Below are positions 32,282 to 33,385 of a stretch of DNA of 64,000 nt, one piece after another. A model generated the notes under the pieces. The model saw only the letters and a list, made by a program, of their open reading frames with translations. It was not told where the DNA came from and made no database searches. Each line of letters begins with the position of its first letter. Within the stretch, counting starts at the first letter, position 1. The stretch comes from Promethearchaeota archaeon (GTDB lineage: Archaea; Asgardarchaeota; Lokiarchaeia; Sigyniarchaeales; SOKP01), in assembly GCA_019058445.1 (NCBI GenBank), contig JAHPZA010000004.1, positions 160,001 through 224,000 of the forward strand. The letters run 5' to 3'. Made by a program: the position numbers and the translations under genes.

Positions 32282-33385
32282 TTATTCCTTAGGCTTTTTT
32301 TTTCTCAAATATTCTGGAAAGGCATTGATGATTTGAATGTTTGATTTTAATACAATATATCGCTCATCATTGTAGGCCAGTTCTTCAATCACGTCGCGTT
32401 CCTTTAGATATTCAATGGTTTCGATTAAATTGTCTAAAAATGTTTTTGAGACAAGTTGTGGTAATTTATCTCTTTGAATTAATCCTTCTCTAAGTTTTGA
32501 AAGAAGATTATAGGTTTTTGGGTCGGCCATAATCTTAAATAAAATTTTGCCGTCTTCTTCCAATTCTTCCTTTGTTTTAGTCTCATATTTATTAAAATAT
32601 TCTTGGACTTTTGTGAGTAAGATATCTATTAACTCGGGGATTTCATCAAAAAATTCTATTACACTGTCTGGAGGTATTCTTTCTATAATAACTTCCTTTA
32701 ATAAAATAATGTACTTTTCAACTCTTCCAATCTGGTTAATAAAAACTAATTGCTCATCAAGGAGAGTGGCAATCATATTATCAAAGTTATTTTCTGGAAA
32801 CCTTTCAATAAACCATTCTTTTAATTCTTCCAAAGTGAGCACTCCCTCGGATAATTCTTGGAGTGTATCATAGATATGTTGTTTACTTAATAATAGAGCA
32901 ATTCTCTCTTCTTCAGTTCTTTCTCTAGTACTTTCCACAACCGCCCAGTATAGTTCCTTGACCCAAAGTTTTACCAAGGAGTAATTTTTATGTATATCTT
33001 CTTGTTCTTGACCCTCAAACTTATGTAATTCATCTTTATAAAAAGCACTGTGAATCGCACCATGTGTTTGTAAACTATTTGAAAATTCCTGGAGTAATGT
33101 GGAAACTTTTTGTTCAATTTCAGGGGTAGTTGGTTGATCAAAAATAACCGAGACCATGAGCATTTCTTTCCCTCCGCGAGCTCGAATAGACTGAATTTCG
33201 AATGGATAATTTAAGGTCGTAAAACTTTCAAACGCATGTATGAAAAAATTTTCGCTGAATGGCTGATCCAGCAGGAAACTCATTACAGAAGAAATTTCTT
33301 TAGTTAGCATATGTTTTGGATACGAATAAAAGACCGAAGGACCTATTTTTCTGTGGAAGTGATTAAGACTTATGATCGGATTCAT
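32282..33385 (-). CDS. NPRL2/uDENN-type longin domain plus two winged-helix repeats
   Basis: FHRKIGPSVFYSYP (F-H-x3-G-P-x3-Y-x2-P), NYPFEI...RARGG, and two internally repeated WH units (IYDTLQELSEG...EKYIILL..IPP and TYNLLSKLREG...ERYIVLK..AFP). Confidence 0.7.
   Translation of the reverse strand: MNPIISLNHFHRKIGPSVFYSYPKHMLTKEISSVMSFLLDQPFSENFFIHAFESFTTLNYPFEIQSIRARGGKEMLMVSVIFDQPTTPEIEQKVSTLLQEFSNSLQTHGAIHSAFYKDELHKFEGQEQEDIHKNYSLVKLWVKELYWAVVESTRERTEEERIALLLSKQHIYDTLQELSEGVLTLEELKEWFIERFPENNFDNMIATLLDEQLVFINQIGRVEKYIILLKEVIIERIPPDSVIEFFDEIPELIDILLTKVQEYFNKYETKTKEELEEDGKILFKIMADPKTYNLLSKLREGLIQRDKLPQLVSKTFLDNLIETIEYLKERDVIEELAYNDERYIVLKSNIQIINAFPEYLRKKKPKE

Follow-up and report, generated by a model that had tools for sequence, protein, structure and literature searches.

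Does an Asgard archaeon carry a longin-type GTPase-activating protein (GAP) with an arginine finger like those of NPRL2, folliculin (FLCN) and SMCR8? The question is raised by a gene, P0001, in a 64,000-nt stretch of contig JAHPZA010000004.1 (positions 160,001-224,000; GCA_019058445.1, Promethearchaeota archaeon, SOKP01), hereafter the window, from a genome of 4.6 Mb in 10 contigs that is 92.6% complete. An earlier note on this DNA had read the gene as an archaeal GATOR1/FLCN-like GAP with its catalytic residue, Arg70, in register. We found that P0001 has the longin fold, the domain layout of NPRL2 and the motifs of catalytic longins, and it is probably a soluble regulator of small GTPases, in which a catalytic-type longin domain is followed by two winged helices. 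The gene and its parts are placed in the window as follows:

32282..33385, minus strand: P0001, whole gene; 367 amino acids (aa), longin domain plus two winged helix-turn-helix domains
32921..33385, minus strand: N-terminal longin domain, aa 1-155, of the FLCN/NPRL2/SMCR8 'GAP longin' type
33338..33358, minus strand: F10...G15-P16 loop, aa 10-16, at the start of strand b2; 'GP motif' plus Phe, family-invariant
33173..33181, minus strand: A69-R70-G71, candidate arginine finger in the b4-b5 hairpin loop; R70 is CGC at 33178-33176
32675..32914, minus strand: first winged helix-turn-helix (WH1), aa 158-237, acidic; aa 156-240 have a net charge of -9
32321..32521, minus strand: second winged helix-turn-helix, aa 289-355, preceded by a helical linker, aa 250-287

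The reading frame holds 367 open codons, with MNPIISLNHFHRKIGPSVFYSYP as its first residues, and since the G+C content of the window is 28-38%, a frame of this length is unlikely to have arisen by chance. More than 436 homologues were found at E≤1e-3, and all of those with an organism label are Asgard (Promethearchaeota/Lokiarchaeota, Hod-, Thor- and Odinarchaeota), which together with the long frame shows that P0001 is a real gene. The extent of the frame, the codon of Arg70 (within the segment LNYPFEIQSIRARGGKEMLMVSVIFD) and the two winged-helix repeats had been read correctly in the earlier note.

Fold and layout of P0001

The structure of P0001 was modelled with AlphaFold2 from 74 relatives, and the model is confident (predicted local distance difference test, pLDDT, 93.3; predicted template modelling score, pTM, 0.80). 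Residues 1-155 show the longin order b-b-a-b-b-b-a-a (b1 4-11, b2 15-22, a1 29-40, b3 48-51, b4 56-65, b5 73-82, helices to 153), and two winged helix-turn-helix units occupy 158-237 and 289-355, with helices between them. Compared by Foldseek to the PDB, the model retrieved NPRL2 chains first (9v0j_A at E 1e-5; 9o5d_D and 7t3b_B with 293-296 collinear columns), followed by NPRL3, yeast Npr2, FNIP2 and FLCN. Among solved structures, the longin domain is matched best by FLCN, NPRL2 and NPRL3, in agreement with the longin fold that had been proposed for the N-terminus. Its structural Z score was 13.5 for FLCN 8dhb_J (139 residues, root-mean-square deviation 2.9; model 2-155 to FLCN 2-268), 13.0 for NPRL2 9v0j_A (model 1-153 to chain 6-143), 12.8 for a Lokiarchaeal roadblock-longin protein, 12.7 for NPRL3, 10-11 for C9orf72/SMCR8 and about 10 for generic longins (Sec22b, VAMP7, AP sigma). 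In a whole-chain search of the ESM Atlas, the eukaryotic entries among the ten matches listed were only Npr2/NPRL2 (209-226 residues aligned across 1-367), SMCR8 and C9orf72; the archaeal clusters listed include a longin-Arf-like GTPase fusion and a Heimdall cluster in which 23% of the members carry Pfam Folliculin. A language-model search with the longin domain gave an Asgard cluster in which 19% of the members carry Pfam NPR2, at a score of 0.84 that lies below the useful level and makes this a lead only.

NPRL2 and NPRL3 consist of a longin domain and two or more winged helix-turn-helix repeats (PMC3747258). The same layout is found in P0001 from the model, the collinear Foldseek alignments and the Npr2 clusters, and the lengths are close, 367 aa for P0001 and 380 for NPRL2. 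When the C-terminal half was modelled alone, the top 50 structure matches held generic winged-helix repressors and no C-lobe of NPRL2 or NPRL3, so that this search gave no support to a specific kinship of this half to the NPRL2 C-lobe.

The candidate arginine finger and its companion motifs

The catalytic arginine fingers of this class are FLCN R164, NPRL2 R78 and SMCR8 R147 (PMC9473554, PMC9646525, PMC8213707), the last of which points at BeF3 (PMC8213707). In FLCN, the mutation F10D abolishes GAP activity, and the loop 10-16 sets the specificity for RagC (PMC9473554). A GP motif, placed where the b1-b2 loop ends or b2 starts, adjoins the finger and is reported to be specific to GAP longins; these features are absent from the non-GAP longins FNIP2, NPRL3, adaptins, TRAPP subunits and DENND-family proteins (PMC12290439). 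In the model of P0001, strand b2 begins with G15-P16 and the b4-b5 hairpin holds R70, which agrees with the published descriptions of GAP longins.

Human FLCN, as sequenced in the PDB, has F10 and G15-P16 at the same residue numbers as P0001, and its A163-R164-G165 aligns without gaps to FEIQSIRARGGKEMLMVSVI of P0001, the motif FxIxxxxARG being common to both. In the PDB sequence of NPRL2, FFSEFHPTLGPKITYQVP, the residues F15, H16, G20-P21, Y25 and P28 correspond to F10, H11, G15-P16, Y20 and P23 of P0001, and this offset of +5 over the FH...GP...Y..P motif agrees with the range of the structural alignment. R78 of NPRL2 is located in KKYSRNA, so that the finger stands in a YSRN context there and in ARG in P0001. 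The start of NPRL2 and the ARG motif of FLCN, which had been cited in the earlier note, thus match the deposited chains.

Conservation of Arg70 had been set beforehand as a test of the proposal. In an alignment of 27 sequences (27-84% identity), F10, G15, P16, F62, S66, A69, R70, G71 and S79 are invariant, and R68 is not conserved. Counts were also made over 243 related longin domains from many architectures, taking as denominator the domains with a residue at the position in question: R70 is kept in 224 of 231, G15 in 210 of 212, P16 in 209 of 212 and F10 in 208 of 210.

Paralogy, GTPase links and the probable function of P0001

P0001 is a fast-evolving, lineage-restricted duplicate of a nearly universal Lokiarchaeial family. 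The family was found in 40 of 41 related genomes, and this genome has a second, canonical copy at C6:1217097-1218290, which is 59% identical to P0001 and scores higher against the family profile (624 bits vs 560 bits). The canonical type, about 51-61% identical to P0001, occurs in nearly all genomes of the taxonomic family, with orthologues of 34-42% across the order; copies of the P0001 type (at least 79% identity) are limited to three of the 41 genomes (this one, G000, with G002 and G003). In a quick maximum-likelihood tree with midpoint root, the P0001-type clade (Shimodaira-Hasegawa-like approximate likelihood-ratio test, SH-aLRT, 100) branches within the canonical Lokiarchaeial group and has a long stem (0.34). 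P0001 is without the Lys-rich C-terminal tail of 30-80 residues found in canonical members, and retains all the catalytic-type motifs.

P0001 also sits outside the block of genes in which canonical members are found. In species-representative genomes, SMC, a 396-aa gene, CN-hydrolase and HAD lie upstream on the opposite strand, and the canonical gene is followed by HTH_45 and DUF2095; CN-hydrolase and HAD are present in all 66 canonical loci with at least 3 kb upstream. The canonical block of this genome (L020:9077-10387) has a 288-aa open reading frame (ORF) with no Pfam match inserted before HTH_45. An Asgard block with a family gene at 56% identity is also carried by contig DATKTW010000128.1, labelled 'Candidatus Nanopelagicaceae bacterium', which is probably mis-binned.

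All links to GTPases come through relatives of P0001, none through its own locus. Two proteins of this genome consist of an Arg-type longin domain, an Arf-family GTPase (Pfam Arf, E 1e-34 to 1e-40), a second longin domain and PAS domains, in this order:

L012:1495-3408, plus strand: Arf-fusion paralogue
L013:1-1893, minus strand: Arf-fusion paralogue (the pair lies on contig C3, near 109 kb and 662 kb)

The L013 gene stands head-to-head with a 323-aa Gtr1/RagA-like gene. Elsewhere in Asgard archaea, relatives of the longin domain occur in fusions with Arf-type GTPases, PAS-histidine kinases or both. Dozens of matches to the Gtr1/RagA model (Rag/Arf-like GTPases) are encoded in the genome. With one locus counted per species, a 320-aa Gtr1/RagA-like GTPase is encoded 1.8 kb from the canonical gene, between the 396-aa gene and CN-hydrolase, in 32 of the 66 loci, a linkage that suggests a connection of the family to GTPases.

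In the function that we consider probable, the longin domain of P0001 would use its F10-G15-P16 loop to dock on an Arf- or Rag-like GTPase, and R70 would be inserted from the b4-b5 hairpin into the nucleotide pocket, where it would speed GTP hydrolysis as R164, R78 and R147 do in folliculin, NPRL2 and SMCR8. The acidic winged helices would probably serve protein-protein assembly and not DNA binding, and a possible partner would be an arginine-less sister protein of the same layout. If the finger works in this way, Asgard archaea already had the longin-type GAP mechanism for Rag/Arf GTPases that in eukaryotes belongs to lysosome biology and the sensing of nutrients, and small soluble Asgard proteins would be simple objects on which to test it.

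Several points weigh against this function. Many longin domains are platforms for guanine nucleotide exchange factors (GEFs) or scaffolds, and the GAP-type longins lead the generic ones by only about 3 Z units. Because the structural alignments gave ranges and not residue-level superpositions, the position of R70 in three dimensions relative to R164 and R78 is drawn from motif identity, strand order and the aligned ranges. No GTPase gene adjoins P0001, and its neighbourhood varies even among the closest orthologues. The Rag-like gene near the canonical member may be linked to it incidentally: two metabolic genes lie between them, the block is vertically inherited among genomes that are kin, and the Rag-like gene is missing from half of the species loci, including the block of this genome, which has no close orthologue of that GTPase. 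For these reasons the linkage is suggestive only. Searches of Pfam (none at E≤10), NCBIfam and PDB sequences with P0001 and the family profile reached no named family, the weak matches being an ArsR winged helix (E 0.58) and chance matches, and no NPRL2 or FLCN chain was among the PDB matches of the profile. When the whole genome was scanned with Pfam NPR2 (PF06218) and Folliculin (PF11704), neither model reached P0001, the Folliculin model giving sub-threshold matches on other longin genes only; kinship to NPRL2/FLCN is thus drawn from fold and motifs. The models for IML1 (DEPDC5), NPR3 and C9orf72-like proteins gave nothing above cut-off in this 92.6%-complete genome, so that the partners known from GATOR1 were not found. 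Of the GATOR1/FLCN-like GAP proposed at the outset, the fold, the layout, the ARG motif in the b4-b5 hairpin, F10 and the GP motif therefore stand, and membership in the NPR2 or Folliculin families and a set of DEPDC5/IML1, NPR3 or C9orf72 homologues do not. The claim that P0001 would work like the NPRL2/FLCN class stands; it cannot be called an orthologue of these proteins.

Three other explanations were considered. It is possible, if clearly less probable, that P0001 is a non-catalytic longin platform, that is, a scaffold, GEF subunit or effector which binds a GTPase or a longin/roadblock protein, with ARG and GP kept for folding or binding. Against this, the invariant F10, GP and ARG are the very residues reported as specific to GAP longins (PMC12290439), and folding alone can hardly account for an exposed hairpin arginine that is kept in 97% of domains across widely divergent architectures. 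A transcription regulator, using its ArsR/MarR-like winged helices to bind DNA and its longin domain as a sensor of a ligand or of the state of a GTPase, would fit the best solved matches of the C-terminal half (DNA-binding ArsR/SmtB/HxlR/MarR repressors), the weak profile match to an ArsR protein noted above, the name 'ArsR family regulator' given by one source to one homologue (P0099), and the small HTH_45 gene that follows the canonical gene in most of the species loci examined. We regard this as unlikely because both winged helices are acidic (for WH1, net charge -9 and isoelectric point 4.5). The long stem of the P0001 clade, its presence in three of 41 genomes and the loss of the conserved C-terminal tail and gene block would also be expected of a decaying or neofunctionalised duplicate, with the canonical copy on another contig doing the job of the family. 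The frame, however, is intact, the catalytic-type motifs are present in 12 of 12 sampled clade members (62-84% identity), and the model reaches the confidence expected of a conserved protein; with motifs intact and fold confident, decay is unlikely.

The catalytic-type longin regulator can be set beside the systems that it resembles. FLCN, the RagC/D GAP subunit of FLCN-FNIP2 (6NZD, 6ULG, 8DHB; yeast Lst7), has a DENN domain as its C-terminal half, whereas P0001 has two winged helices; the long disordered insertions of FLCN are absent from P0001, for which no FNIP-like partner is known. NPRL2 and yeast Npr2, the arginine-finger subunit of GATOR1/SEACIT (6CES, 7T3B, 9V0J, 9O5D, 8ADL), share the layout of P0001 and come near it in length, and Npr2 clusters match it best over the whole chain among the eukaryotic entries listed. 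In SMCR8-C9orf72 (CSW complex), an Arf GAP of two longin domains, the catalytic subunit has a GP motif and an ARG finger as P0001 does, and relatives of the P0001 longin are themselves fused to Arf-type GTPase domains.

Proteins of this kind have been described from Asgard archaea before. NPRL2-like proteins, with a longin and an NPRL2-type C-terminal domain, are reported from Thor and some Loki genomes, as are Asgard proteins in which this longin is joined to GTPases and to two-component domains (Liu et al., bioRxiv 10.1101/2020.10.19.343400), and 'Folliculin/SMCR8 longin domain-containing' proteins with a GP motif and an arginine finger have been published since (Traffic 2025, PMC12290439). 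By description they are of the same kind as P0001, which is a further, lineage-specific paralogue within it. The novelty implied by the earlier note was thus overstated, and P0001 does not open the question, the idea being already in print. What P0001 adds is a compact and well-modelled 367-aa protein with a natural paralogue. The analysis adds candidate Arg-less partner families and, as candidate substrates encoded in the same genome, the Arf-type domains that are joined to this type of longin, together with many Rag-like GTPases; the partner families and the Arf-fusion proteins are the most useful of these by-products.

Arginine-less sister families and gene neighbourhood

The winged-helix half of P0001 is homologous to that of two arginine-less families of equal length, here termed W-type. 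In the C-terminal half, the P0270-type family and the P0001 family matched by hhalign with 96.4% probability (E 1e-9, 194 columns). The member in this genome is:

L007:1474-2562 (C9:246650-247738), minus strand: P0270, 363 aa, no Pfam match

The P0270 family is present in 39 of 41 related genomes and is very conserved (mean column identity 72%), with HW..GP..QYPP invariant (W9, G14, P15) and EGE in place of ARG. The other family, A3, is multi-copy, has the motif RWDxxxG and shares a homologous N-domain with P0270 (96%, E 1.5e-9). The N-domain of the P0001 family matched A3 weakly (46%, E 3e-5) and the P0270 family (A5) not significantly, so a common origin of the P0001-type and W-type N-domains is drawn from the shared C-terminal half and layout. 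The spacing W-[D/N]-x3-G-(P) in the sister families equals that of W33-D34...G38-P39 in C9orf72 (C9orf72 residues from PMC12290439).

Modules of the A3 family (longin plus two winged helices) form the ends of surface-protein ORFs of about 2650-2680 aa with Laminin_G_3 and DUF2341:

C9:430349-464784: five tandem giant surface-protein ORFs (L033, C9:427000-446900, holds two of them)

Beside them lies a Ras/Roc-like GTPase (L033:1186-2139) with a weak N-terminal match to MAPKK1_Int/roadblock. A further A3 module is found at L006:1-2619 (C9:531485-534103), where the ORF of a membrane-anchored surface protein stops at a TAA. Immediately after this stop codon begins P0271, a W-type longin/winged-helix protein of 372 aa, and the pair looks like a split version of the giant fusions.

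The occurrence of finger-bearing and finger-less proteins side by side in the genome mirrors the eukaryotic rule of longin subunits, one of each kind, which suggests a heterodimer with the arginine-less families as candidate NPRL3/C9orf72-like partners. These paralogues could take the role of NPRL3, and by sequence they are not NPR3. Co-folding of P0001 with P0270 scored 0.00 against a mark of 0.32, a result that counts neither for nor against binding. We also tried the rule that W-type longins are always non-catalytic, and rejected it, as WD..GP and an RGG arginine occur together in the second longin of the Arf-fusion proteins. A more speculative proposal, which we hold as doubtful, is that the finger proteins (P0001 and its canonical paralogue) pair with the W-type proteins through contacts between their longin domains and between their winged helices, as an archaeal two-longin GAP for Arf-/Rag-like GTPases and a forerunner of GATOR1, FLCN-FNIP and C9orf72-SMCR8. 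Such a GAP might be recruited to receptors at the cell surface, since five giant and one split surface-protein gene end in W-type modules; if this were true, an archaeon would have a signalling route from receptor to GTPase.

In the window, P0001 is neighboured by genes for a 318-aa membrane protein, a radical SAM protein and a metallo-beta-lactamase-fold protein. Among the closest orthologues compared, these neighbours are common to one and absent beside the others, and no operon partner emerged from their neighbourhoods. Upstream of P0001 on the same (minus) strand are a Lys/Glu-rich ORF of 106 aa (33665-33985) and one of 67 aa (34034-34237), neither with a Pfam match. Two other 367-aa ORFs of the window were considered as paralogues and rejected as unrelated to P0001, one of them being a GHMP kinase. 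At 23169-24272 on the plus strand lies a 367-aa ORF without a Pfam match; it is no paralogue of P0001, and its N-terminus is roadblock/longin-like (IINDSGLLLFGW).
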